Positions 1,361 to 32,565 of a stretch of 64,000 bases of DNA are shown here, piece after piece. The notes beneath the pieces were generated by a model. It was not told the DNA's origin and did not search any database. It was given only the letters and a program-made list of their open reading frames with translations. Each line of letters opens with the position of its first letter. The stretch's first letter is position 1. The position numbers and the translations under genes were made by a program. The stretch comes from Acidimicrobiia bacterium (GTDB lineage: Bacteria > Actinomycetota > Acidimicrobiia > Spongiisociales > ZC4RG35), in assembly GCA_965204615.1 (NCBI GenBank), contig OZ242000.1, positions 3,223,913 to 3,287,912 on the forward strand. The letters run 5' to 3'.

Positions 1361-6688
<5,328 letters not shown>

Positions 6689-11959: not shown

Positions 11960-12103
11960 ACCAGGCACCGCTCGACAGCCTGCTAGACGTAGAAATAAAG
12001 CACTTTGACAACCGAGTGACAGCCGCTCGAAATCAGCCGCTAAGCCAACCGCTCGCAAACCTTGGGCTAAACCCCAGGTCAACGGCCGAATGACAAGCGA
12101 GCC
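11960..12103 (+). promoter_or_regulatory. Putative CRISPR leader (promoter-proximal region upstream of repeat 1)
   Basis: Lies directly upstream of the best-conserved repeats. It is a locally AT-richer stretch with TTGACA at about 12000. No -10 element could be confirmed. Confidence 0.3.
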
Positions 12104-13109: not shown

Positions 13110-13229
13110 CCAACTTGTGCAGGCGTGGACCTGCCTGCTGAGACTATGTCTGGCATGGAATTGTAGAGAGGGGTTCTGACCTGGGTAAAGGGCGGATATG
13201 AAGTGTTAGGGGAGGGAAACCCACGGGGG

Positions 13230-13680
13230 GAGCGGGCCTCAGGCGGTTCGCGACTTGGGTGTGGCTTCGCCTTCAACTTCTCGGCGGGGCTAGTTGCGGG
13301 CCGGCTTTGGTTAGGGAACCAGGCAGACCTTCCCAGCACTTGGCGGTCGGCCAGGTAGGCGATGGCTGCGGGGGCCTGGTCGAAGGAGAAGACCCAGTCC
13401 ACGTGGGGGTGGATCAGGCCCTGCTCGCACCACTCTTTGAGTTGGACGAGATTGGCGCGGTTCTCTCTGGGGTAGCGTTCCACGAAGTCTCCCCAGAACA
13501 CTCCCACCGCCGAGGCCGATTTCAGGAGGGCCAGGTTGAGCGGCAGACGGGGGATCTTCCCGGCCGCAAAGTCGACCACCAGCAGGCATCCGTTCCACCG
13601 GAGTGAGCGGAAGCAGGTTTCAGTGGCGCAACCGCCCACCGGATCGTAGACCACGTCGGCGCTCTTTCCGTCGGTGAAAC
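13230..13680 (-). pseudogene. Truncated copy A of the qor 3' end (~380 bp, with a 1-bp deletion near the stop) plus conserved downstream element
   Basis: 13301..13680 is about 90% identical to 31591..31970 of the intact qor; the encoded VYDPVGGxATETCFRSLRWNG...ADRQVLGR matches. 13203..13300 carries the shared downstream element (GGGAGGGAA...CGCGACTTGGxTGTGGCTTTCGCC...CGGCGGGGCTAGTT...). Confidence 0.75.
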
Positions 13681-13700
13681 TGCGGACAGCCTCCTAGCGT

Positions 13701-14036
13701 ATGGCCCGTCCCTTCAATGTCGATGTGGTCTCACCGGAGGGGACGCTTTGGGCGGGCGACGCCGAGTTCCTGGTGGCTCGCACCACCGAGGGCGAGATCG
13801 GGATCCTGGCCGGGCACGAGCCGCTGATGGCCGCCCTGTCGGCCGGTCCGGTGCTGATCGACCACGACGGCGACCAGCGGACCACCATTGCGGTGCACGG
13901 AGGTTTCATGCAGGTGGTGGAGAACCGTGTGACCCTGCTAACCGACCGCGCCCGGATCACCGCCGGCGACCGCGCCGAGGCCGCCAAGGAGGCCCTGAGG
14001 CTCACCGAGGGCGACCCCCTCGACTTCGAGGAGTAG
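13701..14036 (+). CDS. atpC: F-type ATP synthase epsilon subunit homologue (orphan)
   Basis: 111 aa: MARPFNVDVVSPEGTLWAGDAEFLVARTTEGEIGILAGHEPLMAAL...IAVHGGFMQVVENRVTLLT closely resembles actinobacterial AtpC. No atpD lies upstream. Confidence 0.7.
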   Translation: MARPFNVDVVSPEGTLWAGDAEFLVARTTEGEIGILAGHEPLMAALSAGPVLIDHDGDQRTTIAVHGGFMQVVENRVTLLTDRARITAGDRAEAAKEALRLTEGDPLDFEE

Positions 14037-14466
14037 GAGAGCCGGGCGGGGACGCGGCTGGATAAGAGGTGGGAGAGGTTGGGAAACAGTCCCCGGCCCG
14101 TGGCTTGACTCGTGTCCCATCTCCCGACCATGATGGACGAAGCTGCAAGAACCTCTGGCCCGGGCACAGACTTACCGGGTCGCGGAATCCATGAGGTAAC
14201 CCGAGTCGCGTGTCCCCGGGGTCGGGGCATGGTCTTTCGCGATTTAACAGCGGCGGGGGTGGCGGGGGAAGGCACCCCATATGTCCGGGCCTGGCCAGCA
14301 CTCAAGGAGCTCAATTCTTGTAACTTGAACCCGATCACCACTTCCTGTGCTCCTGCGGCTACTTAGGGAACATCCATCCGAAGTGGCGATCGACGGGCTC
14401 TGTGTGAAAAATCCACTCCTCAAACCGATCTAGGAAAACCACCAACTTCTGGCTATAGACGCCGTA

Positions 14467-14667
14467 TCAGGAATGCACCACCACATTGGCTCGATCCTCC
14501 GCTTCCAGGCCCCACTCCTCCCAAGCCCGTTCGGACAGATCCGGGGTGAGTTCAACCGCTTCTGACAGGAGCACGGTCTCTAGTGGAGCATCCAAGACTG
14601 CATCAACATCGAAAATGGTGATCCCGTATTTGAGGGCTGATCCAGTTATGTAGGGCCGATAACCCAA
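14467..14667 (-). CDS. Hypothetical protein (66 aa), second of the mini-operon
   Basis: Small ORF tightly coupled to the upstream 95-aa ORF. A toxin-antitoxin-like layout is inferred from arrangement only. Confidence 0.25.
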   Translation of the reverse strand: MGYRPYITGSALKYGITIFDVDAVLDAPLETVLLSEAVELTPDLSERAWEEWGLEAEDRANVVVHS

Positions 14668-14674
14668 GTTATGC

Positions 14675-14962
14675 CTAGCTAACGGGAACTAGATGAGACT
14701 CCACGGCTGCCCTTAGGGCAGGATTCAGGAGGCTGAGGAGATGGTAGCGATCCTCGGTTGGACGATTAGCGATTCGGCGAGCCGCTCTTTCTGGACTGAG
14801 AGCGTTCAAATAGAATCGCCAGTCATCATCTGTATAGGCATCGGCCATGGTATTCGCGATCCGCCGTGCCTGCTCTACTTCCTCCGGTCCGGCGGGCACC
14901 CAGTTGTTGGGTTCACTGCCCAACTGGCAGATAGCCTCTATCTTTTCCGTGGTCCACCTCAT
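14675..14962 (-). CDS. Hypothetical protein (95 aa), first of a two-gene mini-operon
   Basis: The ORF is followed 8 bp later by a 66-aa ORF on the same strand. No recognisable motifs. Confidence 0.3.
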   Translation of the reverse strand: MRWTTEKIEAICQLGSEPNNWVPAGPEEVEQARRIANTMADAYTDDDWRFYLNALSPERAARRIANRPTEDRYHLLSLLNPALRAAVESHLVPVS

Positions 14963-15281
14963 TCACTAAAATTTAGCACCAAGACTCGAAGCCCGTGCTT
15001 CGGTTAGTGACCCGTCTCCCCGCAACCGGAAGGCTAAAGCGTTGTTTTCTTTGAACGGTGAGATCCCGTTCTGGGACACCAATCGCCGCGCCTCTCCTTT
15101 TTGGAGCCCTATCGCGGTTGCGAACCGCGGTCGGAGGCGTAGCACCCGCTGTGGACATTTCAGCGGGAACCGTCCACCGGGCTGACGGCCCTGCGCTTAT
15201 GCCATCAGTGTGACAAGTACTGGCTCAGTTCGGCGAGGTTTCGGTCAATGGCCTCTTGGGCGCGAAGCATCATCAAAGCAC

Positions 15282-15666
15282 CCTCCGGGAGGGAGCCCGA
15301 AGGGGAAGGGAGCAGCGGGCGTTTTTCGCGACTTGGCTGTGGTTTTCGCCGTGGATTTCTCGGCGGGGCTAGTTGCTGGCCGGATTGGCTAGGGAACGAG
15401 ACAGACCCTTCCCAGCACCTGGCGGTCGGCCAGGTAGGCCATGGCAGCGGGGGCCTGGTCGAAGGAGAAGACCCGGTCCACGTGGGGTGGATCGAGCCCT
15501 GTTCGCACCACTCTTTGAGCTGGACGAGATTGGCGCGGTTTTCTCTGGGTAGCCTTCTACGAAGTCTCCCCAGAACGCTCCCACCGCCGAGGCCGATTTC
15601 AGGAGGGCCAGGTTGAGCGGCAGGCGGGGGATCTTGCCGGCCGCAAAGTCCACCACCAGCAGGCGT
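15282..15666 (-). pseudogene. Truncated copy B of the qor 3' end (~270 bp) plus conserved downstream element
   Basis: 15400..15666 aligns to the last ~270 bp of qor (LLVVDFAAGKIPRLPLNLALLKSASAVGAFWGDFVE...). 15282..15400 is the shared downstream element. Confidence 0.7.
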
Positions 15667-15689
15667 CCACAGCAGGAGCGTGACCCCAC

Positions 15690-17186
15690 TCAGCTTTCTC
15701 TTATGGTCGGCGGAACCGGCTCTTTGGATGGTGGGCAGATCGCCGGTTCACGGGTGCGGCACATGAATAGCATGGTTTCCTCCCTCGATGGTGTGGATTG
15801 GAACCCGAATGTGTTGGTTGCCGTTCCGCCTGTTATTCCTTGGTTGTAGGCCCAGCCGATGGGCGCCTGGTACCAGGCGTCGGCGTTTCCGGGAACGTCG
15901 TCATAGTGGTCTTTGCCCAGAGTGCCGTTGGCTGGTTCTCCTTCCGCGCGGTAGAGGAATGCCATGGTTTGTTCTCTGGTAAGGGTGTGGCCCATCCCGA
16001 ATAGGCCGTTCCCGATTCCAGTGGTGATGTGGTTTTCGAAGGCCCAGCCGATCGGGATGTTGGCCCAGTGGTCGTCTGGGACATCGGTGAAGTGGGAGCT
16101 GCCGTCGTACTGGTCTGTTGTGCACTCGTCCGGTGCGTAGGCTCGGCACAGGAAAGTTATCATTTCTTCTCGCTTCAAACCTGACTGAACCCCGAACCGT
16201 CCTTCTCCGACGCCTGCTGTGATCTCCCATGATTGAGCCCACCTCACCGGAACGTAGTAGAAGTCGTCGTAGGGTACGTCGGTGAAAGTCGGGTAGTCGT
16301 CGCCTGGGGCTATCTCGATTATGAAAGTGTCTCCGTACCGTTCGATCACATCGAGTTCGTATCGGTCCGGATCCGTTTCGCTGTCCCCCCAGTAAATACC
16401 TTCGTCGAGACCTAGAACATGAAGCACCGAGTCGTCTGCTCCCGATAGGGCCGGTTTCGTTCGCCTGTCCGCACCCCAACAAGCATCCCTGTAGGGGTTG
16501 TCGCACTGAGCGGCGGATTGGTCGATTAGGTAGACCTCAACGCCTTCTTTCTGGATGAGAGAGTCGTATGACTCCTGAACTCGAACTCCTATGGAATGGA
16601 ACATTCCAGTAGACCAGTGCATGATCACCATCTGAGTGCCGGTTGAACCAATCGGGTTTATTGCATGCAGCGATACATGATCCCAAGGATGAATCTCTAC
16701 TTGGTCGGGCTGAATCCAGCCAGCCGCGTAACGATTCAATACATGAGTGCCCGCCAGAACCGGACGGATAGACCATCCTCTATTGTCCTCGTACCTTGCG
16801 GTCGGCCCTCTGCTCATCACATCCATGGGATTGTCATACTCGTCTATCGTGCCATCGTCATTCAAGGTTTCGCCAGTGAAGGAATGGGGCCAACTGAGCG
16901 TATGCCCGATCTCATGAGCAACGGTGTAAATCAGATTCAAGGCACGAAGGTTATCAAGTGATCCTATCCCGTTCTCGATAGAAGACAGAGCAATGGGAGA
17001 CCATCGCACGCCTACGTTCGTGAACCATCCCATCCATACCTCCCTACCGCTGTCAGGATAAAGGTCATGACACCAATTGATGGAAACACTGTCCCAACAG
17101 TAGGAGCCAGGCCCACCCCAAGACCATACGTTGGAAGCATCATCAATATCCAGCGTGGAAACGACAATCGCTGCATGGTTTCCGCC
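15690..17186 (-). pseudogene. Secreted zinc metalloprotease with C-terminal SLH domains, 3' (C-terminal) portion, cut by IS21
   Basis: HEIGH zinc-binding motif (VAHEIGHTLSWPHSF). Three SLH-like segments (FTDVP..HWA...W....GIT.G.....FG....LTREQ...FLYR). The ORF lacks a signal peptide; it continues on the far side of the IS21 element. Confidence 0.65.
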
Positions 17187-17251
17187 TGATGACGATCAGC
17201 GAAAGTGCCCAGAGTCGATCAGCGAAAGTTCCCACCCTGGGTTGGGTGGTT

Positions 17252-18040
17252 TTAGGCTAGCAGGTCTCCTTTCGGGCGGTGTTTTCTGGCTTGTGCTTGG
17301 TAGCTTCGCAGGCGGTAGCTGTCGCCGGTGATGGTGAACACGACGCTTTTGTGGAGTAGGCGGTCGAGCATGGCAGCGGCGATGGTGTGGTCGGAGAAGA
17401 TCTCTCCCCAGGACGCGACACCGAGGTTGGTGGTGAGAATGATTGATCCTTTTCCGTACCGTCGGGAGATGACCTGGAAGAGTGTGGCGGCGTCTTCTGC
17501 CGGCATGGGCAGGTATCCGAGTTCGTCGATTATCAACACTTTGGGGGTGTTGAAGAACCGCAGGGTTTGGGCCCATCTTCCTTGTAGGGCGGCTTTGCGG
17601 CACCGCGCCGCCAGGTCGGCGGCGGTGGTGTAGTACACCTTGTGTCCGGTGTCCACCGCGGCGCGTCCGAGGATGACCGCCAGCATGGTTTTACCCACGC
17701 CGGGCGGTCCGATGAACAAAACGTTGGTGGCGTCGGCCAGGTAGGCGCCGGTGGCCAGTTCTCTTATGAGTTTCTCGTTGATGCTGGGTTGGGCGGTGAA
17801 ATCGAAGTCTTCCAGTTTCCAGCGGGTGGGGAAGTTCGCCAGTTTGAGACGGGTTTCCCATCTGCGCTGTTCAGTGGTTTCGACTTCTACTCGAAGTAGA
17901 CCTTCCAGGAACTGGGTGTGTCCGGTGTTGTCCTGACGCGCCGTCTCGAGGTGGGTGGGGAGCGCCTCGGCCGCGGCGGGTAGGTCGAGGTAGGCCAGAT
18001 GGCCTCGTAGTTGTTGGTACACCGATTGTTGGTTCATCAC
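17252..18040 (-). CDS. istB: IS21-family helper ATPase IstB
   Basis: Walker A GPPGVGKT and Walker B LIIDELGY, in an IstB-like sequence. Overlaps istA by 4 bp. Confidence 0.85.
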   Translation of the reverse strand: MMNQQSVYQQLRGHLAYLDLPAAAEALPTHLETARQDNTGHTQFLEGLLRVEVETTEQRRWETRLKLANFPTRWKLEDFDFTAQPSINEKLIRELATGAYLADATNVLFIGPPGVGKTMLAVILGRAAVDTGHKVYYTTAADLAARCRKAALQGRWAQTLRFFNTPKVLIIDELGYLPMPAEDAATLFQVISRRYGKGSIILTTNLGVASWGEIFSDHTIAAAMLDRLLHKSVVFTITGDSYRLRSYQAQARKHRPKGDLLA

Positions 18041-19332
18041 AGCCCCCGGTTTTGTTGGTCGATGTGCCGCTGATAAACCTCCAGGTCTATCACCGTTTCT
18101 GTGTACAGATCAGCTCCGATACCCGAAGCGATAGCCAAAGCCGCTGCCGATGGCGGACGGTTGGGTTTGGGTTTGCAGGGTGGTTTGGTAGTGAACTCGG
18201 CCAGGACCACGTTCTCCAAAGCAGCGGTGTGTTCGGGTAGCCGTACCACCCGTCCCATACCGCGGGGTGCCTGCTGGTGGGTAGCGACCAGCCGGCCACT
18301 GGCCGAGAACATGCTGATAGTGGGGTCACCCAGCCGCCAACGGACGGTGACCTGGGTTCCTATCACCCCTGGTGGCACCGAGTATCGGTTACCGCGTACC
18401 GATACCAGCCCGTTGGAAGCCACCCTGCGCTCCAGGACCCCTTCCGCCGGGTAAGCCACCAGGGGCAGCTCGAGGAGAGGCTCGGTCTCGGCCAGTTCCC
18501 CCACGGTGCTCTCGCCTCGTGGACGGGCGTCGCCCACCGTTTGGCAGAAGCTGTCCAGGCTGTGCTGTGCCTGGGCGATGCTGGTCACCGCCGCGGTGCG
18601 CCACCACCGCTGAGAGACATAGTGAATGGCCTTTTCCACCACGCCTTTCCGTTGAGGACGGCGCGGTGGGCACGGATCGACAACCACCCCGTAATGCTTG
18701 GCTACCCCAACGAACGACGGCTGGATACGACCGCCGGCGGCGACCACGGTCGCCATCCGATCCACCCGCCACCGCCGCGGGGTGCCCCCCAGGCGTCTCA
18801 ACACCTGGTCGAGACCCTCCACCAAATGGGGTTGGTCCTGGCGGGACGTGATCCACGCCCGAAAAGCGCCCGAGTGCGACAACACACCCACCAACACATG
18901 AGCCGTGGCTCCCCACGGGGCATCACGCAGCTCCACCCAATCCCATTGACACTCCTCACCCGGCGGATGATCGATGATCGCAGTGGCACGGCCCCTGGTG
19001 CCCGCACAAGCGCCACACAACGGCCGCAGGCCCCGGTTGCGGATCTTCCGCACGAACGTCGGGTAACTCTGCGAATAGCCCAAAGCCACCACCTCGTCGA
19101 ACAGCGCCGACCCCCACACATGCGGATCATCAGACAACCGCTGCCGCACATACGCCTCGAACTCATCAAACAAATCCGCCCCCGCCCGGGCACGCTGACC
19201 GGGCACCCGATCGCCCGACAGATACGCTCGCACGGTACGGCGGCTCTTACCAACATGACGGGCAATAGCCGAGATCGACCACCCCCGCCTCCTCAAAGCA
19301 TGAACTTCCACGCACTCCTCCAGTACCAACAT
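18037..19332 (-). CDS. istA: IS21-family transposase IstA
   Basis: N-terminal HTH (WSISAIARHVGKSRRTVRAY) followed by an integrase-core-like region. 431 aa. Confidence 0.85.
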   Translation of the reverse strand: MLVLEECVEVHALRRRGWSISAIARHVGKSRRTVRAYLSGDRVPGQRARAGADLFDEFEAYVRQRLSDDPHVWGSALFDEVVALGYSQSYPTFVRKIRNRGLRPLCGACAGTRGRATAIIDHPPGEECQWDWVELRDAPWGATAHVLVGVLSHSGAFRAWITSRQDQPHLVEGLDQVLRRLGGTPRRWRVDRMATVVAAGGRIQPSFVGVAKHYGVVVDPCPPRRPQRKGVVEKAIHYVSQRWWRTAAVTSIAQAQHSLDSFCQTVGDARPRGESTVGELAETEPLLELPLVAYPAEGVLERRVASNGLVSVRGNRYSVPPGVIGTQVTVRWRLGDPTISMFSASGRLVATHQQAPRGMGRVVRLPEHTAALENVVLAEFTTKPPCKPKPNRPPSAAALAIASGIGADLYTETVIDLEVYQRHIDQQNRGL

Positions 19333-19476
19333 AAGGGGCAGGGCTCCTCTCCACAGCTAGGAAATGTGACAATCCCTTAGCTTGGAGAGAGCCCTACCCA
19401 ACAACGGGCATTTACCCCCAGGAGGTGGGAACTTTCAGTGATCGAGACTGGGAACTTTCAGTGATCGCCAACACGC

Positions 19477-19879
19477 CTGTCGACCGATTGCTGACCGAAG
19501 TCAAACAGTCTTGTTGGTAGTTGGCTCGAACATACCCTCCGGGAACGAAGGACAAAGCATATTCTCCTTCTGACATCCAGGAGTAATACGGGGGCAACTC
19601 AGCATTCAGGAGTCCCGTTACGTTCTCAGGCGTCAGATCAAGAGAACCATGAACCTCGTCACACACCCATACCTCGAACCGGTCAGGCGCGGTTGTTCGA
19701 TACGACGTGAGTCCAAAGTTGGCCACCAGCCCCAGCGGGTCGGCCATATACGGATCGGGATCGGCCGACTGCAAAACCACCCGGTCAGTCACCGACAGAG
19801 CACTAGAGGGAGCAGGCAGGACAGCCATCAACAAGCCAGCAAGGAACACCACCCGCAACGTGCCCAAAAGGCTCCTCAT
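19477..19879 (-). pseudogene. Metalloprotease 5' (N-terminal) portion with signal peptide, separated from its 3' part by IS21
   Basis: MRSLLGTLRVVFLAGLLMAVLPAPSSA signal peptide. The ORF runs into the IS21 end. Together with 15690..17186 it would encode a precursor of ~630 aa. Confidence 0.6.
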
Positions 19880-19886
19880 CTCGATG

Positions 19887-20759
19887 TCAGCGCCTCTTGG
19901 AGGTCCCGGGGCTGGTGGGAGGTCCGAGGATCCCGTGTTGTTGGAGGCGTCGGCGGAGGGTCTCTAACAGAGGCTTCGTCACGTCGCGTCTGTACTTGTC
20001 CCGGACTATGGCAGGCAGGCCGACAACAAGAGTTCCGGCGATTGGTCCCCTCACCAGCTGAACTTCTCGGTAGGTGCGGCTCAGGCGCCTGTTGATCGTC
20101 TTCTCGTAGTCCGGCCGCCGCCGCTGACCGCTTTCTCTGAGAATCGTCCTCCACGGAACTCCACCAACCTGATTCGCCAGCGTTACGATGCAACGGAGCC
20201 TGGGACGAGCTGAACAGAGCAGTCGCCAACCAATCTCCTCGCCTCGTTCCCGGAGAGTCGGCGGAACATCGGAAAGCACCGAAGCCCGGAAGGGAACGAT
20301 GTTCATAGACGGTGTATCCCGAAGGAACCCAATGGCCTCCGGGCTGAGTCGCCCCTCCGGACTTGGGGTCGGGTCCTCTACAACCGCCACCGCTTCGCTC
20401 GCCGACGCCCCCACACAGATCATGGCTATCGCCTGGATCACACGCTGTAACCGAGCCGCGCCCACCTCCGCGCCCCAGCGGTCATCCAAATAAGCCGAAT
20501 ATCGGGGGTCGCGGAACGGGCGAACAGCATCATCGGGATGGGCGTGCCGGGGGCCACCTGCGGGGTTCATACCCACTATCGCAAACCCACTGCCCTGCTC
20601 GAAGCTCTCCACACTGGAATAGAGAAGCCGATAATTCAGTGTTCCGGTCTCCAATCCCAGCCATCCCTCCTCCTCGCACAGGGACCCACACTCTCCCGCC
20701 AGAGCCTCAAGCTCTGAACGCAGCCCCATCACGCTCCCTTCCAAAACCTGTCCAGACAT
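19887..20759 (-). CDS. Hypothetical protein (290 aa) immediately upstream of the metalloprotease gene
   Basis: Seven bp separate it from the metalloprotease start. No recognisable motifs. Confidence 0.4.
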   Translation of the reverse strand: MSGQVLEGSVMGLRSELEALAGECGSLCEEEGWLGLETGTLNYRLLYSSVESFEQGSGFAIVGMNPAGGPRHAHPDDAVRPFRDPRYSAYLDDRWGAEVGAARLQRVIQAIAMICVGASASEAVAVVEDPTPSPEGRLSPEAIGFLRDTPSMNIVPFRASVLSDVPPTLRERGEEIGWRLLCSARPRLRCIVTLANQVGGVPWRTILRESGQRRRPDYEKTINRRLSRTYREVQLVRGPIAGTLVVGLPAIVRDKYRRDVTKPLLETLRRRLQQHGILGPPTSPGTSKRR

Positions 20760-20799
20760 GATACCGAGAAAGACGCCCCGGCGGAACGAGACACCATCT

Positions 20800-20935
20800 G
20801 GGGGAGGGAAGCCCGCCGAGGGAGGGGACCGGCGGGCGATTCTCGCGACTTGGCTGTGGCTTTCGCCGTCAACTTCCCGGCGGGGCTACTTACCCGCCTG
20901 CTTTGGGTAGGGAACCAGACTGGCCCATTCCTTGT
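20800..20935 (-). repeat. Copy C of the qor-downstream element with only ~15 bp of the qor 3' end
   Basis: GGGGAGGGAAGCCCGCCGAGGGAGGGGACCGGCGGGCGATTCTCGCGACTTGGCTGTGGCTTTCGCCGTCAACTTCCCGGCGGGGCTACTT...TTTGGGTAGGGAACCAGAC aligns to the downstream element of copies A and B, including the qor stop-codon region. Confidence 0.65.
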
Positions 20936-20970
20936 TCTCCAACAGGTCTCTGTAGCATCGGGGCGGTCTC

Positions 20971-22905: not shown

Positions 22906-23232
22906 GACCTGGAAAACCGGTCGTCCTTTGTCGAAGTGACTCGCCACCGGATCGGGCTGGGGGCTGACAGCGAACAAGTCCGGTCGAGTATGGACCCAGC
23001 CGAGCGGTTCGGGCCCGTTGACGAGGACACCGGCCGGCGGAAGGGATGATAAGCTGGCGTTGCACCTCGGGGTGGTGGGTGACAGCAAGCGGGCGCTACG
23101 GTACTTCGTCGCACCTCGTCAGACGATCACAATCGCAAATGAACGCTGCTGTGGTTTCATGAGCATCTACCTCGATAGTTAATTATGGTTGCCGGGCGTC
23201 CTCCTGAGGTTCCGCCGATGCTCCTATGTTTG

Positions 23233-24471: not shown

Positions 24472-24781
24472 AACGGGATAGAATTCGGCCTATTCACCAG
24501 ACCCGCTGGCGGATGGACAGACCACTCTGTGAGTATTAGGGGGGCCTCGTGGAGGTTGTCAGGAATGGCGTCAGCGGCGGTGTCGTGACCCAAGACCACT
24601 CTGACCTTTGTGTCTTACACGTGATATGTCCGACACCGCCGTGGCGCCTTCTGGGCGTTCCGTTGCTGGCCTGATCAGAAGCTTGTCCACCCCCTTGGGG
24701 GTGTGACCCATCACAGTGTTGCCGTCACGGTTTGCGCCTTCTTGGGGCAATAACCCAGTTTGCACAAGAAGGGAGTTTCTT

Positions 24782-25825
24782 ATGTTGGCCACAATGGTAG
24801 ATCATGTGATCGGGATCGATCCTGATCGTGACCGGGTCACCGCCTCGGTAGTGGACACGTCCACTACCGGAGAACAGGCATCTGCGGTGTTCGCTACTAC
24901 CCGGGTGGGGTATGACCGGCTGTTGGAATGGGCCAATCGGTATACCACCGTCTCTGATCGGGTGTGGTCGGTGGAAGGCACGGGCAGTTACGGAGCAGGC
25001 GCAACAGCCTATCTCACTTCGCGGGGTGAGTGGGTGACCGAGTTCAACGATCCCATCCCCACCCGCGACGGCGCCAAGACCGACGCTTTGGACGCCCGAC
25101 GCGCCGCCCGCCAGGCGCTGGGTCGCCGGTGGCCATCGGTCCCGCGGGCTCGTGGAGACCGAAAAGCCCTACGAGTGTTGGAAACGACCCGCAACAGCGC
25201 CAAAAACGACAAAATAGCGGCTATCCACCAACTCAAAGCTCTCCTGGTCACCGCACCAGTCGATCTTCGTGACCAACTCCGAGGGCTGACCACTGCTGCT
25301 CTGGTCACCAAATGCGCACGGTTCCGACTCGCATCGGCGCCGGTCACCGAACACACCGCCACCAAGCAGGCTATGCGTTCTCTGGCCCGACGCATACGCA
25401 CTCTCGCCACCGAAATCGCAGAACTGCGCACAGCAATCAACGAACTGGTCAACTCTGTGGCCCCCCAACTGTTGAACCAGCCCGGGGTAGGCCCGATCAC
25501 CGCCGCGCAGGTATACATCGCCTGGTCCCACAAAGGCCGATGCCGCAACGAAGCCGCGTTCGCTCGCCTCGCCGGCGTCGCACCCCTAGAAGCCTCCTCC
25601 GGGCTACACACCCGCCACCGGCTCAACCGGCACGGCGACCGGACCCTCAACCAGGCAATCCACACCATCGCTATCACCCGCTCCCGGGCCTGCCCCAAAA
25701 CCCGCGCCTACATCGCCAAACGCATCAGCCAAGGAAAAACCACCCGCGAAGCCCGCCGGTGTCTCAAACGCTACATCGCCCGCCAGCTCTACCGACTGCT
25801 CGAAAACCCACCCCCACCCGCCTAA
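24782..25825 (+). CDS. IS110-family transposase (second copy, divergent from the first)
   Basis: VIGIDPDRDRVTASVVDTST...WSVEGTGSYGAGATAYL. RBS AAGAAGGGAG lies upstream of the ATG at 24782. The ORF-track start at 24716 is probably too far upstream. Confidence 0.8.
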   Translation: MLATMVDHVIGIDPDRDRVTASVVDTSTTGEQASAVFATTRVGYDRLLEWANRYTTVSDRVWSVEGTGSYGAGATAYLTSRGEWVTEFNDPIPTRDGAKTDALDARRAARQALGRRWPSVPRARGDRKALRVLETTRNSAKNDKIAAIHQLKALLVTAPVDLRDQLRGLTTAALVTKCARFRLASAPVTEHTATKQAMRSLARRIRTLATEIAELRTAINELVNSVAPQLLNQPGVGPITAAQVYIAWSHKGRCRNEAAFARLAGVAPLEASSGLHTRHRLNRHGDRTLNQAIHTIAITRSRACPKTRAYIAKRISQGKTTREARRCLKRYIARQLYRLLENPPPPA

Positions 25826-26072
25826 CGGCCGAACCAGCTCTCCACCCCAAAAACACGATTTGGAGAACATAGAAGCATCACGATGAAATGGAGAAGCAAA
25901 GCTCCTATCAGGTCACATCCGCCTACGGGTCGGTGAAACATCCCTCAGCCGACAAACAGGCCGACAGATCGGCGGCAAGGCACAAAGCCAGGTTTAGCGT
26001 GGGTCAGACCCGCCCCGGCCAAGGGACCCCTACAAGTATGAGTGGTTTGGCGGATGGTTGGTGCGGACGAAG

Positions 26073-29000
26073 CTATGGTGAGGCGTCGCCGGGTTCGGTG
26101 ACGTCGATCACGATCACCGATATTTTGCGCTTTTCTTCGGGTTCGAGTTGGCTTTCGAGGCGTTGTCGTAATTCCTGGGGAGTGGTCGGTCGCCGGCCGG
26201 AGGGCGGGGGTGTGGTCCGATCGGCGCCGAACCACAGGACGAGGAAGACCCCGTATCCGGAGGTGGAGGGATCGGTTGTGTATCTGTTGATCAGTTGGTT
26301 GCGAAGGGCGCTCCACAGATTGCGGTGAGAGTTCTTCTTGATCTCGACCGGCACGTTGAATCCTTTGAAGGTCGCTCGGATGTCGGATCTCTTTGCTCCG
26401 GCATATCGGCCCTCCGGCGATACATCGATCCTGGAGGGAAGTCGGTGATTCAGGGCTTGGAGCAGGGCATCGCGGCAGGAGTCCTCCGGGTTGCTGTTGG
26501 TGGGGCGTCCGTAGGAGTCTTCGTTCCAGAATTGACGCCATAGGTTGGCGCTGTCTCCGCGAATGTGTTCGGAGATCGTTTCAAACTGATCGCAGAGCAG
26601 GGCGGCCAGGTCGGCCGGGTTCGCCGGTTCCTGATTGGTGAGGGTCCGTTGGACTTCTTCAACTCCCGGATGGTTGAAAGAGGCTTCGCGGTACACAGCC
26701 CTTTGGGCTTCCTGTGCCCACAGCAATTGATCTCGCCACCGTACGAGTTTGGAGTCTTCCACCAGATCCGCCAGTTCTCGGTGGGTTTCGGCATCCTCCA
26801 TGGAGCCCAGTTGCCTGATGATGTCACTTATGAGTTCGGAGGTGCCGATTTCGAGCGTGACCAGTCCCTCCGGCACCCGGGGCCGGTAGGAGGGCGCCAA
26901 AATGCGGACCAGGTTGGCCAGCATCTCTGCGTTCCACTCGCCGGATACCATCCGGCGGCGACCCGCATACCTGGGAGAGTTGCTCAGGAACTCGGCCAGA
27001 TGTCGGACGCGTCTCTCGTCGCCGCCAAGTACGTAATCCTTCAGTTGTTGCATGCGCGGTTCGGTGGACAACATGGCAGCCACTGTCATCCATCTGACCC
27101 GCTGACCGACATCGAGACTCTTCAAAGCCAGCCTTTCCTTGGCCATGACCAGGAGCGCCGCGTCATCGGGGCGGCTGAGCGCTTTCCCCAGAAGTTGGTC
27201 GAATTGTCGGGTTTGCTTCCTGGGTATCCGGGTGGGAAAGGCGTCAAGCAGCCTCAGTCTGGCCTCGTCCACCAGGCTGTCGTGGCCTGGAAGAAGGTCC
27301 AGTTCCTCGACCGTGGGTAGGTGTTCCTTACCGTTGCGCAGGTCCGCCACCGCGCATCGGTGCACAGTATCGAGCACCAGGTCCGGGTTCTGTCGGAACC
27401 ACATGTCACGGCACTCCCGAGTTTCCTCGCGGCCCAGGGGAAAGCAGTAATACAGTGTCAGGGCCTGTCGCATCCGGGCGGCCTCCAGTGCCAGGGCAGG
27501 TTCCGGGCCGGTCGCCAGAAAATGCATGCTTGCCTGAACGGGGTAGGCAAGGTATGGCATGCGTGATTGGGAGTGGAGCGAGAAGGTCTCATCCACTCCG
27601 GGAAGGTCATGGCGCCACAAAGCGCCCCGGAGGGCGGCCATGACGGCATCGGCAAGTTGTGGGTCTCCTCCGATGAAATCTCGGACCCGCTCGTAGGGCG
27701 TCCCCTGTTCAATGTTTCGAAACTGTCCGAAGTAAGCCAGTGCCAGGGTGTGAAGATTGGCGGGGGAGAAGGTGTTGTTCCGCAGTTCCGTTTCCTGCGA
27801 ACGAAGGAGACCGGCCCACTCCTCTCGCTGGCGTCTTTCTTCCATCCGTTGCTGCTCTCTGCGTTGGTCCTCCCGTTGTCGCCAATCCTCCTCGGGTGAT
27901 GGAGCCAAGGCGGTCTGACGCTGCCGGTGAAGCTCGTCGAGTTCCCCTGCCAGCCGCGCATGTCCGCGCAGTCGCTCGCGCATCATTTCAAGGGTCAGTC
28001 CTTCGCTGATGGAGGAGTATTCCAACGCGTGGTAGGCGTCTCTCAGGAGTATCCGTGAGGATGCCGGCCGTGTATCGGCCAGATTGACTGCCTGCTCAAG
28101 ATACCAGAGTCCCAGGTCGGCGGGAGGCCTGCTGTGGTACAGCACCTTTGCGAAAGATAGGGGATAGGACGCCGCGTCGCCGTCGGGATTGTCCGGTTCG
28201 AGCCACTTGAGGATGATCTCCTTTTGAAGTTGGGGTCTTGCTTCCAACCATGCTCGTATTTCGTCGGCATCTTCTTTGTCCGCGGGTCTCCACCTGATCC
28301 TGGAGTGATAAGTGGCGGTCAGCCAGTTGTAGAGACGGTCTGTTTCGATTTCATCTCCTATCGCATTCAAGGCGCGTGCCAGGAGTCGAGGCGGCAGTTC
28401 CTCGAATCTTGAGTCTTCCAGAGATCGAGCGATGTCGGCGGCGTCTTCGCACAGCGCATCAAGGAGTTCCGCCAACTGTTGGCCGGATGACTTGTCGAGG
28501 AGGGTGTGGTTCCAGAAGATCCAGAAACTGCCGAAAAGGTTCTTTCTGTTGCGGGGCGCCACATACCTCCAGACCCGGTGGGGAGAAACCTGGTCAGGAT
28601 AAAGGAATCTCAGCAGTGTTCCCCGCATCTGGTCACCGGGGTCGGCGAGCTCTGAGGCTTGGCTCTTTTCCAGTAGCCCTATGAGCTTCTGTGCCCGTGT
28701 TTCGGTGGGCGGGGCGATGTTGAGATAGGCGTCGAGAGCATCCTTTCTCACCCACGGGGACCTCCCCGCGTCGTCAACGATGGCATGGAGGCTCGGGACC
28801 AGGGTTGCCAGCGATTCCAGATCCCGGTCCGCGTGTTCCAGTATTCCGGCCAGGAACTTGACCATCCGGTCGGCCGCAGGGGTGGGTTCTCGACCATTGA
28901 GCAGGTCATCGATGATGGGGATCATGTCCCGGGAGACCAGGGAGCGGAAGGTCCAGGCCGCGTATTCGTTATGGACGGTTCGGGCGTCTGTCGGGCTGGG

Positions 29001-30224
29001 ACCTGACAGAGGCTCCTTTGTCGCGAATGAGGCCAAGGACCGGAGTAGGCGTGTCTTGTCGGTTTTGGTTATTCCGCTGATGTCCCCGTACAGCCCGACA
29101 CCCACCGGATCGGCGTCGATGAGCAGGCCACGGGCCTCCCGGGAATGTGTCGCCAGCCAAGCGGACAGACCGCGCAGCGGGGTAACCACCCGTCCGTCGC
29201 CGGGACTGCTCATCAGGGCCGTCACTCTTCGGGCCGGGAGTCCTTCTTCGATGAGCTCGGCCAGGTAGCGGCCCCCCAGGAACTCGGCCACCTGCCGGTG
29301 GACGGGACGGAATAACCCCTCTCCCGCGGCGGCGAACAGTTTGGTGGCCAATGCTCTCCTGAGACGCTCGGGTGCGATCTTCGTGCCCTCGCTGACCTGA
29401 TCCGAATCCATGAAGGACGGGCTGGTTCCTCGGAGGAACGAATATGCTTCGATGTCGGCCAGCAAAGCCAGCGCACACAGATAGCCGATGGCCGTCCTTA
29501 CCTCGGTGGGCGGCGCCGGGGCGGCAATCACATGCTCCGAATTCTGTTCGGCCGCCAACTCTCGGCAGGCCATTTCGAACGTTTCGCGCCTGCTTCGGGG
29601 CCAGCCTTCGCCTTTCCTGGTCGCGTCCACGACCAACTGCAGGGTCAGAGGATTCTTCAGGAGGGGCCAGATTCCCCGATGCCGCGACTCTTCCAGGAAC
29701 TCATCCACGTCCCCCGAGAGCGCTGATCTCAGAATCTCTTTCACCGACATCTCATCGAGGGGTTGCAAGTGGACGACGGTGACCTCTCCGTCCGCGGGGG
29801 CCACCAGAGCCAGTTTCTCACGGTCGTTGCTACCGAGCCAGTCCGCTTCCCGACAGGAGATGCGGAACCCCGGAGGGCGGAGCCTGTCCAGCCGTCGCCG
29901 GATTCTGTCCAAGGGAACGCGGGAGTCTCTCGCTCCCGCCCGCACCTCGTCCAGGCCGTCGATGAAGAGAATCTTTTCCCGCCACTCCGGATGCGAGTCG
30001 ATGTCAAAGTATATGAAATCGCGGGCGGGTATGTATGCGGCGCCGCTTCCCAGCGCTTGGCGCTCCTTCATGAACTCGGTTGTTTTGCCGGCGCCGGGAT
30101 CGCCGAGCAAAACCAGCGCGGGCCGTGACCGGAACGCACTGAACGGCATGCTTTCTCCACGGAAGGTTTCACCTCGACCGTCTAGGTGGACCTCGGTGCA
30201 AACTCGTCCAACCAAGGTGCTCAT
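26073..30224 (-). CDS. Large NACHT-like STAND NTPase (1383 aa) with long helical C-terminal region and putative C-terminal PD-(D/E)xK nuclease-like domain
   Basis: Walker A GDPGAGKT and Walker B ILFIDGLDEV (the hhhhDGhDE NACHT signature). Downstream RISCRE (sensor-1-like) and NPLTLQLV (GxP-like). About 900 aa of helical, charge-rich repeats. C-terminal ...SDIRATFKGFNVPVEIKK... fits a D...ExK motif. Start overlaps the upstream stop (ATGA). Confidence 0.7.
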   Translation of the reverse strand: MSTLVGRVCTEVHLDGRGETFRGESMPFSAFRSRPALVLLGDPGAGKTTEFMKERQALGSGAAYIPARDFIYFDIDSHPEWREKILFIDGLDEVRAGARDSRVPLDRIRRRLDRLRPPGFRISCREADWLGSNDREKLALVAPADGEVTVVHLQPLDEMSVKEILRSALSGDVDEFLEESRHRGIWPLLKNPLTLQLVVDATRKGEGWPRSRRETFEMACRELAAEQNSEHVIAAPAPPTEVRTAIGYLCALALLADIEAYSFLRGTSPSFMDSDQVSEGTKIAPERLRRALATKLFAAAGEGLFRPVHRQVAEFLGGRYLAELIEEGLPARRVTALMSSPGDGRVVTPLRGLSAWLATHSREARGLLIDADPVGVGLYGDISGITKTDKTRLLRSLASFATKEPLSGPSPTDARTVHNEYAAWTFRSLVSRDMIPIIDDLLNGREPTPAADRMVKFLAGILEHADRDLESLATLVPSLHAIVDDAGRSPWVRKDALDAYLNIAPPTETRAQKLIGLLEKSQASELADPGDQMRGTLLRFLYPDQVSPHRVWRYVAPRNRKNLFGSFWIFWNHTLLDKSSGQQLAELLDALCEDAADIARSLEDSRFEELPPRLLARALNAIGDEIETDRLYNWLTATYHSRIRWRPADKEDADEIRAWLEARPQLQKEIILKWLEPDNPDGDAASYPLSFAKVLYHSRPPADLGLWYLEQAVNLADTRPASSRILLRDAYHALEYSSISEGLTLEMMRERLRGHARLAGELDELHRQRQTALAPSPEEDWRQREDQRREQQRMEERRQREEWAGLLRSQETELRNNTFSPANLHTLALAYFGQFRNIEQGTPYERVRDFIGGDPQLADAVMAALRGALWRHDLPGVDETFSLHSQSRMPYLAYPVQASMHFLATGPEPALALEAARMRQALTLYYCFPLGREETRECRDMWFRQNPDLVLDTVHRCAVADLRNGKEHLPTVEELDLLPGHDSLVDEARLRLLDAFPTRIPRKQTRQFDQLLGKALSRPDDAALLVMAKERLALKSLDVGQRVRWMTVAAMLSTEPRMQQLKDYVLGGDERRVRHLAEFLSNSPRYAGRRRMVSGEWNAEMLANLVRILAPSYRPRVPEGLVTLEIGTSELISDIIRQLGSMEDAETHRELADLVEDSKLVRWRDQLLWAQEAQRAVYREASFNHPGVEEVQRTLTNQEPANPADLAALLCDQFETISEHIRGDSANLWRQFWNEDSYGRPTNSNPEDSCRDALLQALNHRLPSRIDVSPEGRYAGAKRSDIRATFKGFNVPVEIKKNSHRNLWSALRNQLINRYTTDPSTSGYGVFLVLWFGADRTTPPPSGRRPTTPQELRQRLESQLEPEEKRKISVIVIDVTEPGDASP

Positions 30225-31483
30225 GCCGGTTCCAGCCAGTAATCAGCAGGTGCTGCCAGGAACTCGTGGAGAGGGCGGCCACCGGATCCGACAACCACAG
30301 ACCCAAGAGGCCGGAAACGCCCCTCGATTTCGGCCAATCCCGAGAGCGCCAAGGGCCCCTTTCCGGTCTTCACCTCAATCCCCACCACGCGTGGTCCTCT
30401 TTGCAGGACGAAATCCACTTCATGACTCCCGGACCTCCAGTAATAGACCGAAGTGGACGGCCCGGCCGTATTGACCAGGTGAGCCCCTACGGCGCTCTCG
30501 ACCAGACGCCCCCAATACCTCCGGTCCGCACGCGCCTCTTCGAAGCCGTACCCCCACGCGGCAGTCATCAGAGCCGTGTTGAGCACGTTCAGCTTCGGTG
30601 TGGAAGCCTTGGCGGAAATCCGGCGAGTGGTGTATTTTGAGAGACCCGCCAACAGCCCCGCATCCGAGAGCAGCTTCAGATAGCGGGTAAGGGTCGTGGT
30701 GTTTCCGGCATCCTGAAGTTGACCCAGCATTTTGTTGTACGACAGCACCTGTCCCGAGTACAGACACCCTATGTCGAACAGGCGCTTCAAGAGCGACGGC
30801 TTGTGCACTCTGGTCATCGCCAGCACGTCACGCTCGATGATGGGTTCCACCAGAGCCCCCTGCACATAAGTCATCCACCTCTCCGGGTCGTGTGCCCGCG
30901 ATGCTGCCCCCGGGTAACCGCCGAAGTAGATGTACCGGTCCAAATCGAACCCGAAGGCCTCGGCCATTTCCAGATACGACCAATGTGTGAAACGGATCGG
31001 CTCGAACCGTCCCGCCAGGCTCTCATTCAAGCCCGCCTGCATCAACAGAGGAGCGGAACCCAGGACCACCACATGGAGGGGGCAACCGCTGGTCCGGTCG
31101 GCGTCCCATAGTCCCTTCACGACATCAGACCACCCTTCGATCCTCTGTATCTCGTCCAGGACCAGGACCAAACCGTCTTCCGACTGCCATGCCCGGTGAC
31201 GAGAGTCCTGCCACACACCCACCAGCCAGGACGCGTCTTTCACCACCGGCAACGAAGCGACAGCGTCGCTGCCCGTGGGCGGCCACGGTCTCGCCCTCTC
31301 CACTACGGGCTCATCCACCGCCACATATAGACTCGGACGGCCAACAGAGGACAAAGCCTGGCGAGCCGCAACAGTCTTGCCGGTCTGGCGCGGGCCGAAG
31401 ATAGCCAACAGCCGCTCGGGCGGCTCGGCCAGCCTCTCAATCAGAGTCCCTACCTGTGAACGGCGGAAATCACTCATCCCCAC
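30221..31483 (-). CDS. AAA+ ATPase, COG1373-like (AAA_14 plus DUF4143-like C-terminal domain)
   Basis: Walker A GPRQTGKT and Walker B LVLDEIQ. C-terminal SGSHEVDFVL...GIEVKTGK resembles the DUF4143 / PD-(D/E)xK-like module. Translationally coupled to the NACHT gene. Confidence 0.7.
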   Translation of the reverse strand: MGMSDFRRSQVGTLIERLAEPPERLLAIFGPRQTGKTVAARQALSSVGRPSLYVAVDEPVVERARPWPPTGSDAVASLPVVKDASWLVGVWQDSRHRAWQSEDGLVLVLDEIQRIEGWSDVVKGLWDADRTSGCPLHVVVLGSAPLLMQAGLNESLAGRFEPIRFTHWSYLEMAEAFGFDLDRYIYFGGYPGAASRAHDPERWMTYVQGALVEPIIERDVLAMTRVHKPSLLKRLFDIGCLYSGQVLSYNKMLGQLQDAGNTTTLTRYLKLLSDAGLLAGLSKYTTRRISAKASTPKLNVLNTALMTAAWGYGFEEARADRRYWGRLVESAVGAHLVNTAGPSTSVYYWRSGSHEVDFVLQRGPRVVGIEVKTGKGPLALSGLAEIEGRFRPLGSVVVGSGGRPLHEFLAAPADYWLEPA

Positions 31484-31506
31484 CAGGATACAAGAATCCA
31501 GGTGTA

Positions 31507-31545
31507 GTTATTGAGTGATTTTACTCAATAACTACACACGCCACC
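31507..31545. terminator. AT-rich perfect palindrome (15-bp arms, 6-nt loop) between qor and the ATPase gene; possible terminator or recombination site
   Basis: GTGTAGTTATTGAGT-GATTTT-ACTCAATAACTACAC. Strongly AT-rich in a ~65% GC context. Lies 45 bp downstream of the qor stop. No U-tract. Confidence 0.4.
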
Positions 31546-31590
31546 TACGAAGATTCAACAGAAAAGACCGACGGGTTGCCGGGCAGATCT

Positions 31591-32565
31591 CTAGGGAACC
31601 AGGCAGACCCTTCCCAGCACCTGGCGGTCTGCCAGGTAGGCCATGGCTGCGGGGGCCTGGTCGAAGGAGAAGACCCGGTCCACGTGGGGGTGGATGAGGC
31701 CCTGTTCGCACCACTCTTTGAGCTGGACTAGATTGGCGCGGTTTTCCCTGGGGTAGCGTTCCACGAAGTCTCCCCAGAACACTCCCACCGCCGAGGCCGA
31801 CTTGAGGAGGGCCAGGTTGAGCGGCAGGCGGGGGATCTTGCCGGCCGCAAAGCCCACCACCAGCAGGCGTCCGTTCCAACGGAGTGAGCGGAAGCACGTT
31901 TCAGTGGCGGAACCGCCCACGGGATCGTAGACCACGTCGGCGCCCTTTCCGTCGGTGAAACTGCGGATCGCCTCCCGTAGGTCATCGCGGTCGTAGCGGA
32001 TGGCGACATCCGCCCCGCGTTGCAGAACGAACTCCGCCTTCCTCTCCGAGGACACCGCCGCCGCCACCCGGCATCCCAGTAGCTTGGCAATTTCGACCGC
32101 GGCGATTCCCACTCCACCGGCCGCGCCCAGCACCACCACCGTCTCTCCTTCGGACACCGCGGCCCGGTCGACCAGGGCATGGTAGGAGGTTCCGTAGGCG
32201 GTCATGAAGGACGCCGCCTCGATGTCGGTCAGGTTGTCGGGCGCCGGTGCGGTCCGGGAGACGTCGGTCACCACCGTTTCGGCGAAACAACCCACCCCGG
32301 CGAACATCACCACCCGGTCTCCCACCGACACCGAGTCCACCCCGGGTCCCACCTCGGTGACCGTGCCGGCTCCCTCGAAGCCGGGAATGAAGGGGAGGTC
32401 CGGCTTCACCTGGTAGTGCCCCGACACCACCAGGATGTCGGCGAAGTTGACTCCCGACCCTCCCAGGGCGATCTTGACCTGCCCGGGTCCGGGCGTCGGT
32501 TCGGGGACCTCGGTGGCCACCAGACCGGCCGGTCCCTTCCAATCTGTGCACAGAACGGCTTTCAC
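31591..32565 (-). CDS. qor: NADPH:quinone oxidoreductase / zinc-type alcohol dehydrogenase-like (MDR family), intact copy
   Basis: 324 aa. GGSGVNFADILVVSGHY...LGAAGGVGIAAVEIAKLLG (Rossmann GxGxxG). Its 3' third is the sequence repeated at 13.3, 15.4 and 20.9 kb. Confidence 0.8.
   Translation of the reverse strand: MKAVLCTDWKGPAGLVATEVPEPTPGPGQVKIALGGSGVNFADILVVSGHYQVKPDLPFIPGFEGAGTVTEVGPGVDSVSVGDRVVMFAGVGCFAETVVTDVSRTAPAPDNLTDIEAASFMTAYGTSYHALVDRAAVSEGETVVVLGAAGGVGIAAVEIAKLLGCRVAAAVSSERKAEFVLQRGADVAIRYDRDDLREAIRSFTDGKGADVVYDPVGGSATETCFRSLRWNGRLLVVGFAAGKIPRLPLNLALLKSASAVGVFWGDFVERYPRENRANLVQLKEWCEQGLIHPHVDRVFSFDQAPAAMAYLADRQVLGRVCLVP

Follow-up and report, generated by a model that had tools for sequence, protein, structure and literature searches.

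The analysed stretch (the window, 64,000 nt) comes from a metagenome-derived 3.33-Mb contig of an Acidimicrobiia bacterium whose lineage is uncultured and known only from metagenomes. In this sponge-associated species atpC and the quinone-oxidoreductase gene qor are convergent core genes, and the DNA between them is a strain-variable island that carries SLH surface proteins and a NACHT (EruA-like)/PDC-S01 defence module. From left to right the part of the window at issue here reads CRISPR-eA-qA | atpC-N1-eB-qB | block 2-eC-qC | SLH-PD40...NACHT-ATPase-qor, where e denotes copies of a ~100-nt element, q denotes fragments of qor and the bars mark junctions A, B and C. The type I-G CRISPR-Cas system sits just beyond the duplicated atpC copy, with its cas locus at 131-8479 and three transposase genes between that locus and the CRISPR array. 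Long open reading frames elsewhere in the window are intact. The features are as follows.

12089..13117, no strand: CRISPR array with 37-nt repeats, at least 14 copies, part of the type I-G cas locus
13203..13309, minus: element copy eA, native-type qor 3' flank, abutting the degenerate-repeat end of the CRISPR array
13310..13694, minus: fragment qA, a pseudogene piece covering the final 385 nt of qor at 93.5% identity with the intact copy
13689..13694, no strand: junction A, 6-nt microhomology GCCTCC, qor position -385 (antisense) joined to the atpD stop/atpC start
13701..14036, plus: atpC copy, allele P0196, separated from atpD (Pfam ATP-synt_DE_N; cluster look-up)
14037..15289, no strand: N1 spacer (strain comparison)
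about 15290..15388, minus: element copy eB (alignment, direct reading)
15389..15668, minus: fragment qB, the last 280 nt of qor, 94.6% identical to the intact copy
15669..15686, no strand: junction B, 9-nt filler ACAGCAGGA then GCGTGACCC (sequence comparison)
15690..20759, minus: block 2, IS21-interrupted SLH-domain protein and a hypothetical gene (Pfam; strain comparison)
17189..19467, minus: IS21 with 6-bp target duplication CGCCTG, istA at 18037-19332 and istB at 17252-18040
about 20800..20908, minus: element copy eC, in the same position in L059, L065 and L068
20909..20920, minus: fragment qC, about 11 nt, TAGGGAACCAG; junction C runs on to 20925
20971..22905, plus: SLH-PD40 beta-propeller protein (Pfam; synteny)
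23219..26043, no strand: two IS110-family elements in a small palindrome CCGCCG/GTTTGGCGG, at 23233-24471 (minus) and 24716-25825 (plus)
26073..31483, minus: defence module, 1383-aa NACHT protein (EruA-like) and AAA_14/DUF4143 ATPase (PADLOC PDC-S01)
31484..31590, no strand: palindrome region, a perfect 15-bp inverted repeat at 31495-31545 that lies upstream of the ATPase gene, and an element vestige beside the qor stop codon
31591..32565, minus: intact qor, NADPH:quinone oxidoreductase family, 324 aa from GTG (Pfam ADH_N/ADH_zinc_N)

The original prediction had described three same-strand pieces of the qor 3' end dividing three cargo blocks, with CRISPR-Cas just past the first piece. Repeat finding, alignment and direct sequence reading established that all three pieces are real, with small corrections leading to the coordinates above; the gene content of the blocks was as described, and eA does abut the end of the CRISPR array. 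Intact qor is called as 309 aa in the public annotation, matches an NCBIfam PIG3-family subfamily model below its cutoff, and shares 97-99% nucleotide identity with the conspecific strains L059 and L060. The fragments have no present function. Fragment qA carries one 1-nt homopolymer deletion, a TAG to TAA change of the stop codon and seven private amino-acid changes, and its 184-aa read-through frame is a singleton found only on the source contig, while qB carries two 1-nt homopolymer deletions. Differences between fragments and intact qor fall mostly at third codon positions (4/2/19 and 2/3/10 for positions 1/2/3), a bias consistent with DNA that came in from another strain. Changes private to the fragments are evenly spread (4/1/5 and 2/2/3), as expected from decay.

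These private changes also bear on whether the window is an assembly artefact, in which the long contig would string together haplotypes from a mixture of strains. The source is a 3.33-Mb metagenome-derived contig, no other assembly shows junctions A and B, and each of the three frameshifts in qA and qB is a 1-nt homopolymer deletion, which sequencing errors can produce as well. We nevertheless consider an artefact highly improbable: the private nonsynonymous substitutions of qA and qB are missing from all 11 functional qor alleles, overlap-based mis-joining cannot yield a microhomology of 6 nt or a filler junction, junction C is identical in three independent assemblies, and the other long frames of the window are unbroken.

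As had been noted, a conserved element of ~100 nt lies on the gene-downstream side of each fragment. Its copies are about 80% identical to one another, and a search with a 25-nt core allowing at most 3 mismatches recovered two of the three (B and C), against none expected from shuffled sequences. This sequence belongs natively to the 3' side of qor and is not DNA of a mobile element: it adjoins intact qor in the conspecific strains L056, L058, L059, L061 and L063, copy eA is homologous to L056 12615-12679, where that sequence is in native position, and the element is the border of the homology (element, qor and right flank) conserved in all strains. Beside the intact gene in the window the element is absent and a palindrome stands instead, as originally reported, except that a vestige of 14-20 nt (TTGCCGG...) persists there. 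Since L059 and L062 keep both the palindrome and the full element beside qor, the window and L060 carry a deletion of ~130 nt. No covarying or extended palindromic fold was found in the element (12 pairs, 0 compensatory, -8.5 kcal/mol), and there was no Rfam match. An integron cassette array was considered and rejected, given that no IntI was found and the element lacks a structured attC-like fold.

When the qor-atpC spacer was compared across eight strain-level contigs, it proved hypervariable, ranging from 12 nt to about 6 kb where a contig spans it. The empty-site comparison suggested with the original prediction turned up empty or near-empty variants: L001 and L007 have only 12-96 nt between qor and atpC, and L061 has ~1 kb between atpC and the element beside qor. 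In L056 the atp operon, ending in atpC, is followed by the SLH-PD40 gene alone, then the element and qor; this gene is also the native neighbour of qor in L058, L059 and L063. The L059 and L065 arrangement runs from atpC through a flank (n1) joined to block 2, then eC, qC and the SLH-PD40 gene, to qor, so that block 2 is native locus content in strains of this type. In L060 the SLH-PD40 gene is followed by the NACHT and ATPase genes, which adjoin qor, whereas in L063 the defence module occupies a different position, its palindrome being joined to a 70-nt stub of the atpC 3' end followed by the SLH-PD40 gene, element and qor. The L063 joint is likewise illegitimate but independent of the others, and what it left behind is a stub of atpC, not a qor fragment. 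The blocks of the window are alternative alleles of one locus in conspecific strains. Within block 2, the SLH-domain protein (15690-17033, resuming at 19412-19879) is followed by a 290-aa hypothetical gene (19887-20759); the empty site of its IS21 is present in L065, and that of the IS110 elements in L060. Among the ~10 strain-level contigs we did not find the parental alleles predicted by the explanation that we favour below, namely CRISPR-element-intact qor, full N1-element-intact qor and block 2-element-intact qor.

The junctions could be read directly. Junction A was resolved by a three-way comparison of the window, the atpD|atpC boundary of L056 and the L056 qor, and it retains the atpD stop codon. 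At junction B the filler ACAGCAGGA repeats CAGCAGG from the end of qB just upstream, and the 9-mer GCGTGACCC that follows matches the final 9 nt of the n1 flank, which is joined to block 2 in six other contigs (L059, L062, L065, L066, L067 and L068). Junction C connects qC with the distal portion of the atpC/SLH-PD40 spacer, at a point about 45 nt ahead of the SLH-PD40 start; it has little clear microhomology and is ambiguous as an illegitimate joint. Junctions A and B occur only in the source genome, and junction C, as noted, is shared. The 5' ends of the fragments differ (qor positions -385, -280 and -11), and the far end of the element is roughly common to them. All three joints lie inside the last 385 nt of qor, which may be a matter of ascertainment.

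The original prediction had read this arrangement as serial site-specific integration of islands at a single attB in the qor 3' end. On that reading the integrase genes would have to be outside the window, or gone. Same-strand, 5'-truncated 3' fragments downstream of an intact gene, relatives with empty sites, and an 11-nt direct repeat (TAGGGAACCAG) flanking 20921-31590 all agree with such a history. Serial acquisition and displacement at one locus stands; the site-specific part does not. The differing fragment ends leave no shared crossover core, every copy includes about 100 nt of native chromosomal flank, and junction A is a microhomology with atpD/atpC. The would-be island bounded by the 11-nt repeat holds the SLH-PD40 gene, the native qor neighbour in L056, L058 and L063; atpC is likewise native, and other strains have block 2 and the NACHT module as resident alleles of the locus. 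With a second, allelic atpC on the source contig, much of the locus is there in duplicate, in heterologous form. When the large open reading frames between 1 and 35 kb were all scanned with Pfam, no block had a tyrosine or serine recombinase inside or beside it, in agreement with the earlier remark that no integrase is visible; the mobile-element genes there are transposases only (IS21, IS110, IS256/Mutator, DDE and DUF772), all away from the junctions. Integration at an attB is thus largely refuted already, and we give it very little probability.

A less improbable alternative, if still an unlikely one, is that intragenomic, microhomology-mediated tandem duplications of segments that reach from the island interior, or from atpC, to the qor 3' end were followed by gene gain and loss in each copy independently and, later, by allele replacement when other strains recombined homologously with this one. 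Junction A looks exactly as a duplication joint should, the end of a unit (qor) meeting the start of a unit (atpC) across 6 nt of microhomology, and the decay-type private changes in the fragments indicate age. The source contig also has two atpC copies, P0196 in the window and P0198 elsewhere, but the contents of the two units differ, the first lying largely outside the window. Moreover, residues 95-96 distinguish the two copies, and each of them occurs in other strains as the only allele, linked to the operon; with two population alleles on one contig, the duplicated locus is heterologous. What lies to the left of one element copy never duplicates what lies to the left of the next (CRISPR, N1, block 2 and the palindrome/ATPase region, in turn). 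Spacer N1 begins with 36-240 nt of conserved atpC 3' flank, common to L056, L059 and L061, and its remainder (14276-15286) is unique to this genome. Three duplications would be needed, each with precise replacement of content up to the element edge.

The explanation that we favour, with somewhat better than even confidence, is that the locus grew by head-to-tail stacking of its alternative alleles, with one homologous crossover and one illegitimate joint per event. Each unit of element plus fragment would be the scar of one event that joined in a piece of this locus derived from another strain. The homologous crossover would have been placed in qor or its conserved right flank, while the illegitimate joint, of microhomology or filler type, would have landed within the resident qor 3' end. 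The incoming chunk would have brought a new intact qor 3' end and its own island content, and the resident truncated 3' end, with its flank and island content, would have been displaced outward; three nested events could produce the present layout. We infer the order of these events, the route of DNA transfer and the route of recombination; the last may have been linear homology-facilitated illegitimate recombination (HFIR) or Campbell-type entry of a circularised fragment, with the same product either way. Against this explanation count the missing parental alleles, the occurrence of junctions A and B in the source genome only and the scant microhomology at junction C. L059-type strains might also just as well have arisen by deletion, through the GCGTGNCCC repeat, from an ancestor that resembled the window.

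Serial displaced 3' ends are known from rhs, CDI and T6SS effector-immunity loci, for which HFIR has been proposed (Kirchberger et al. 2017, PMC5361080, where Jackson et al. 2009 are cited). Like those arrays, the locus has an intact gene and, behind it on the same strand, a series of old 5'-truncated 3' ends with their downstream DNA, a conserved 5' part or flank serving as homologous anchor beside a variable region, illegitimate opposite joints (6 nt at junction A, a 9-nt filler at junction B) and no integrase. It differs in that qor is a housekeeping-type oxidoreductase whose 3' end is neither polymorphic nor toxic, so that the displaced pieces are functionless; the variable payload is the neighbouring island rather than the tip of the gene, and the incoming DNA comes in large pieces, up to about 18 kb, that bring along atpC, the core gene of the opposite flank. 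HFIR in natural transformation (de Vries & Wackernagel 2002; Prudhomme et al. 2002; Meier & Wackernagel 2003, as cited in PMC5361080 and PMC3240628) similarly combines a one-sided homology anchor with a short GC-rich microhomology, as in the 6 nt of junction A, or filler on the other side. Events in the laboratory are mostly small, with recipient DNA being replaced, whereas here the illegitimate joint lies inside the homology and part of the anchor is duplicated. Island arrays at tRNA and tmRNA 3' ends share the division of successive blocks by target-gene fragments and the empty sites in relatives; unlike them, the present array has no integrase, no fixed core and variable fragment lengths, its repeats reach into native flank, and its cargo consists partly of the locus's own genes. 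Microhomology-mediated tandem duplication resembles junction A in joining unit end to unit start across 6 nt, but the two units here differ in content and in their atpC population alleles.

The claim of a new attB in a protein-coding gene is therefore removed, and in its place stands a documented example of integrase-free growth of a strain-variable defence and surface-protein island. As an annotation caution, serial 3'-end fragments alone do not prove site-specific integration. Partial duplicates of a flanking core gene would record nested recombination between co-existing strains and, as direct repeats of 100-490 nt, could mediate later loss of blocks. For sponge symbionts, qor-atpC is a hotspot with clear presence/absence alleles across samples. 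We put at about even the chance that the defence and surface-protein island of this uncultured sponge symbiont grows by stacking whole alleles from conspecific strains with no dedicated recombinase; if true, the locus would offer a datable nested series of core-gene 3' scars, a record of homology-facilitated illegitimate recombination in a natural population.

Repeat searches of the 12-34 kb interval, together with direct reading and alignments, established that three truncated copies of the qor 3' end (qA, qB and qC) are real, lie on the same strand as the intact quinone oxidoreductase gene and are each accompanied by a copy of a conserved element of ~100 nt (eA, eB and eC) on their gene-downstream side, as the original prediction had described. 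Its listing of the contents of the intervening blocks also agrees with our domain searches.

Features of the window around the qor fragments
131-8479, type I-G cas genes
12089-13117, CRISPR array
13203-13309, element copy eA
13310-13694, same strand as qor, fragment qA (385 nt, 93.5% identity to the intact gene)
13701-14036, window copy of atpC
about 15290-15388, element copy eB
15389-15668, same strand as qor, fragment qB (280 nt, 94.6% identity to the intact gene)
17189-19467, IS21 element splitting an SLH-domain gene (6-bp target duplication CGCCTG), with a hypothetical gene beside the interrupted gene
about 20800-20908, element copy eC
20909-20920, same strand as qor, fragment qC (about 11 nt, TAGGGAACCAG)
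between junction C and the IS110 elements, SLH-PD40 protein gene
23219-26043, two IS110-family elements, back to back in a small palindrome (CCGCCG / GTTTGGCGG)
26073-31483, genes for a 1383-aa NACHT protein and an AAA_14/DUF4143 ATPase, the latter matching PADLOC PDC-S01 (a candidate system)
31591..32565, minus strand, intact qor (ADH_N and ADH_zinc_N domains)

The type I-G (I-U) cas set comprises Csb1/GSU0053, Csb2/GSU0054, Cas3, a Cas8g/Cas3-extension protein and a Cas4-Cas1 fusion, with three transposase genes (DDE_Tnp_1, IS256/Mutator and DUF772) between it and the array, whose trailer end is marked by three degenerate repeats closest to eA. The IS110 pair consists of two different elements, for which L060, a contig from another strain of the species, retains the exact empty site. 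Against the NCBIfam antiphage model EruA the 1383-aa protein scored 826 bits, short of the equivalog cutoff (1000). A palindrome formed by a perfect 15-bp inverted repeat (31495-31545; GTGTAGTTATTGAGT...ACTCAATAACTACAC) lies immediately upstream of the gene for the PDC-S01 ATPase. It is conserved at 84-90% identity in strain-level contigs L059, L062 and L063, although L059 has no ATPase gene, and may act as operator or terminator. No tRNA and no Rfam feature was found across the region, and exact-protein look-ups of the window qor (324-aa form) and of the 1383-aa and 290-aa proteins returned no match.

When comparing the fragments with intact qor, we counted differences at codon positions 1/2/3 of 4/2/19 for qA and 2/3/10 for qB, against 1/0/12 between intact qor and its allele in L056. 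The reading that third-position bias alone proves an origin in other strains was tempered once private and shared changes were separated: site by site, the functional alleles are themselves polymorphic at most of the third positions that differ, and the fragment-private changes are spread evenly (4/1/5 in qA, 2/2/3 in qB). Private lesions include three 1-nt homopolymer deletions, and seven amino-acid changes in qA and four in qB are absent from every functional allele. The three frameshifts are all single-base deletions in G3, C5 and C4 homopolymers (~13330, 15495 and 15553), compatible with both natural slippage and long-read error. Private changes thus look like decay and shared changes like population polymorphism, and from the site split, the deletions and the private amino-acid changes together we conclude that the fragments are old pseudogene pieces derived from alleles other than the present intact qor. 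A search with the qA ORF found no match beyond the source contig.

Relatives with 78-90% qor identity, all sponge-associated Acidimicrobiia MAGs, are syntenic with window 33-45 kb upstream of qor; beyond qor, across a spacer of 12 nt (L007) or 96 nt (L001), come a convergent atpC and the rest of the atp operon. Exact-protein look-ups also yielded strain-level contigs (95-99% nucleotide identity), which were compared by BLAST; n1 denotes the flank preceding block 2, which holds the SLH protein gene and the 290-aa hypothetical (15690-20759 in the window).

Layouts of the qor–atpC locus in strain-level contigs
L056, L057, L058: atpD-atpC-210-nt spacer-SLH-PD40-element-qor
L061: atpD-atpC-~1 kb-element-qor
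L059/L064, L065, L066-L068: atpD-atpC-n1/block 2 (without IS21)-eC-qC-SLH-PD40-..., continuing in L059 as palindrome-element-qor
L060: SLH-PD40-NACHT-ATPase-palindrome-qor, without the IS110 elements and, like the window, without the element
L063: NACHT-ATPase-palindrome / last 70 nt of atpC-spacer-SLH-PD40-element-qor

These layouts indicate that qor–atpC is a hypervariable locus and that the supposed cargo blocks of the window are its alternative contents. The element, which sits beside intact qor in L056-L059, L061 and L063, is the native 3' flank of that gene. Its reported absence downstream of intact qor holds for the window, where a loss of ~130 nt relative to L059, shared with L060, has left only a short vestige. 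The NACHT/ATPase pair is the direct neighbour of qor both in the window and in L060; in L063 SLH-PD40 separates it from qor, so this module moves within the locus. No counterpart of the CRISPR-Cas block (131-13117) was found in any fetched strain-level locus, nor any match to the 85 nt between array and eA or to the unique part of N1, the spacer (14037-15289) after the window atpC. The SLH gene split by IS21 is an intact 632-aa ORF in L065 and L068.

A 25-nt core of the element, at ≤3 mismatches, matched eB and eC (2/3 copies) and no shuffled sequence; blastn did not find the element in relatives whose qor is about 80-90% identical, a weak common motif (TCGCGAAAA...CCCTCCC) seen by eye in L002, L003 and L005 being all that could be recognized, and two scans of JGI metagenome contigs (element pattern; element/qor-stop junction) gave 0 matches. 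As Rfam at gathering threshold had no match in the element and RNAalifold on nine copies showed no covarying structure, an sRNA, riboswitch or attC was dropped, and an integron-like array was rejected because neither an IntI in the window nor any attC-like structure was found.

Junction A (13689-13694), the 5' end of qA, reads ...GAAACTGCGGACAGCCTCCTAGCGTATGGCC, with qor antisense on the left, the atpD stop and atpC start on the right and an overlap of GCCTCC, and its sequence identifies it as an illegitimate joint of the microhomology type. The window keeps the stop codon of atpD but not the gene itself. At junction B, the end of qB at 15668 is followed by a 9-nt filler (ACAGCAGGA) repeating CAGCAGG from the qB end just upstream, and then by a 9-mer (GCGTGACCC) equal to the last 9 nt of n1 in six other contigs. 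Junction C joins the element and 11 nt of qor with the distal portion of the spacer between atpC and SLH-PD40, and is real and inherited, being identical in L059, L065 and L068. L063 contains another, independent illegitimate joint (palindrome / atpC -70) where a stub of atpC was left, not a piece of qor; a qor/atpC joint in L062 was discarded, as it spans a 10-N scaffold gap. An assembly artefact is unlikely, given joints without overlap usable by an assembler, private substitutions in the fragments and the recurrence of junction C in independent assemblies, though read-level confirmation is still desirable for junctions A and B.

The original prediction explained the fragments by serial integration at an attB in qor. 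Site-specific integration is not supported: the window has no integrase, the fragments lack a common core, the repeats run on into native flank, microhomology accounts for junction A and the 'cargo' includes native genes.

Two different sequences of the atpC cluster lie on the 3,332,550-nt source contig, which also carries the window qor and the qA ORF: P0196, the window copy, is the allele of L056 and L057, and P0198 is the one linked to the atp operon in L059 and L065-L068. Evidently, this genome carries two heterologous versions of the locus that runs from atpC as far as the 3' end of qor. The main rival explanation is microhomology-mediated tandem duplication within the genome, with later turnover of content and replacement of alleles. 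It accounts for the two atpC copies and the form of junction A, but requires more steps and leaves the differing DNA beside each element copy unexplained.

The data fit a nested stacking of alternative alleles of the locus. Each event would join a chunk of another strain's locus at two points, one by homologous crossover within qor or the flank to its right and the other by an illegitimate joint within the resident qor 3' end, and would displace outward the truncated resident copy of that end together with its native flank and the island content already there. The same topology has been proposed for 3'-displacement arrays at rhs and T6SS effector-immunity loci, with homology-facilitated illegitimate recombination as the suggested cause (PMC5361080). 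Entry of a circularised fragment through one crossover would lead to an identical product. More than one order of the three events is conceivable, as junction C can pass from strain to strain by homologous exchange and L059-type strains could have arisen by deletion via the GCGTGNCCC repeat. None of the single-copy parental alleles predicted by such stacking was seen among the strain-level contigs compared.

Variation extends beyond qor–atpC. The interval 40519-43107, about 8 kb from qor, is a second strain-specific SLH surface-protein insertion, holding an SLH and DUF5122 beta-propeller gene (40586-42736, minus strand) where L058-L061 have about 55-120 nt unmatched to the window. A further small indel polymorphism, containing a short ORF, lies upstream of qor: about 355 nt (32790-33144) that the window shares with L059 and L063 are missing in L056 and partly missing in L058, L060 and L061. 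The homologue of the gene at 43113-44708, single in the window, is a tandem pair in L003, L006 and L061.

The site is a hypervariable defence and surface-protein locus with recombination scars, and offers a clear and instructive case of genome plasticity of a familiar type rather than a new mobile-element mechanism.
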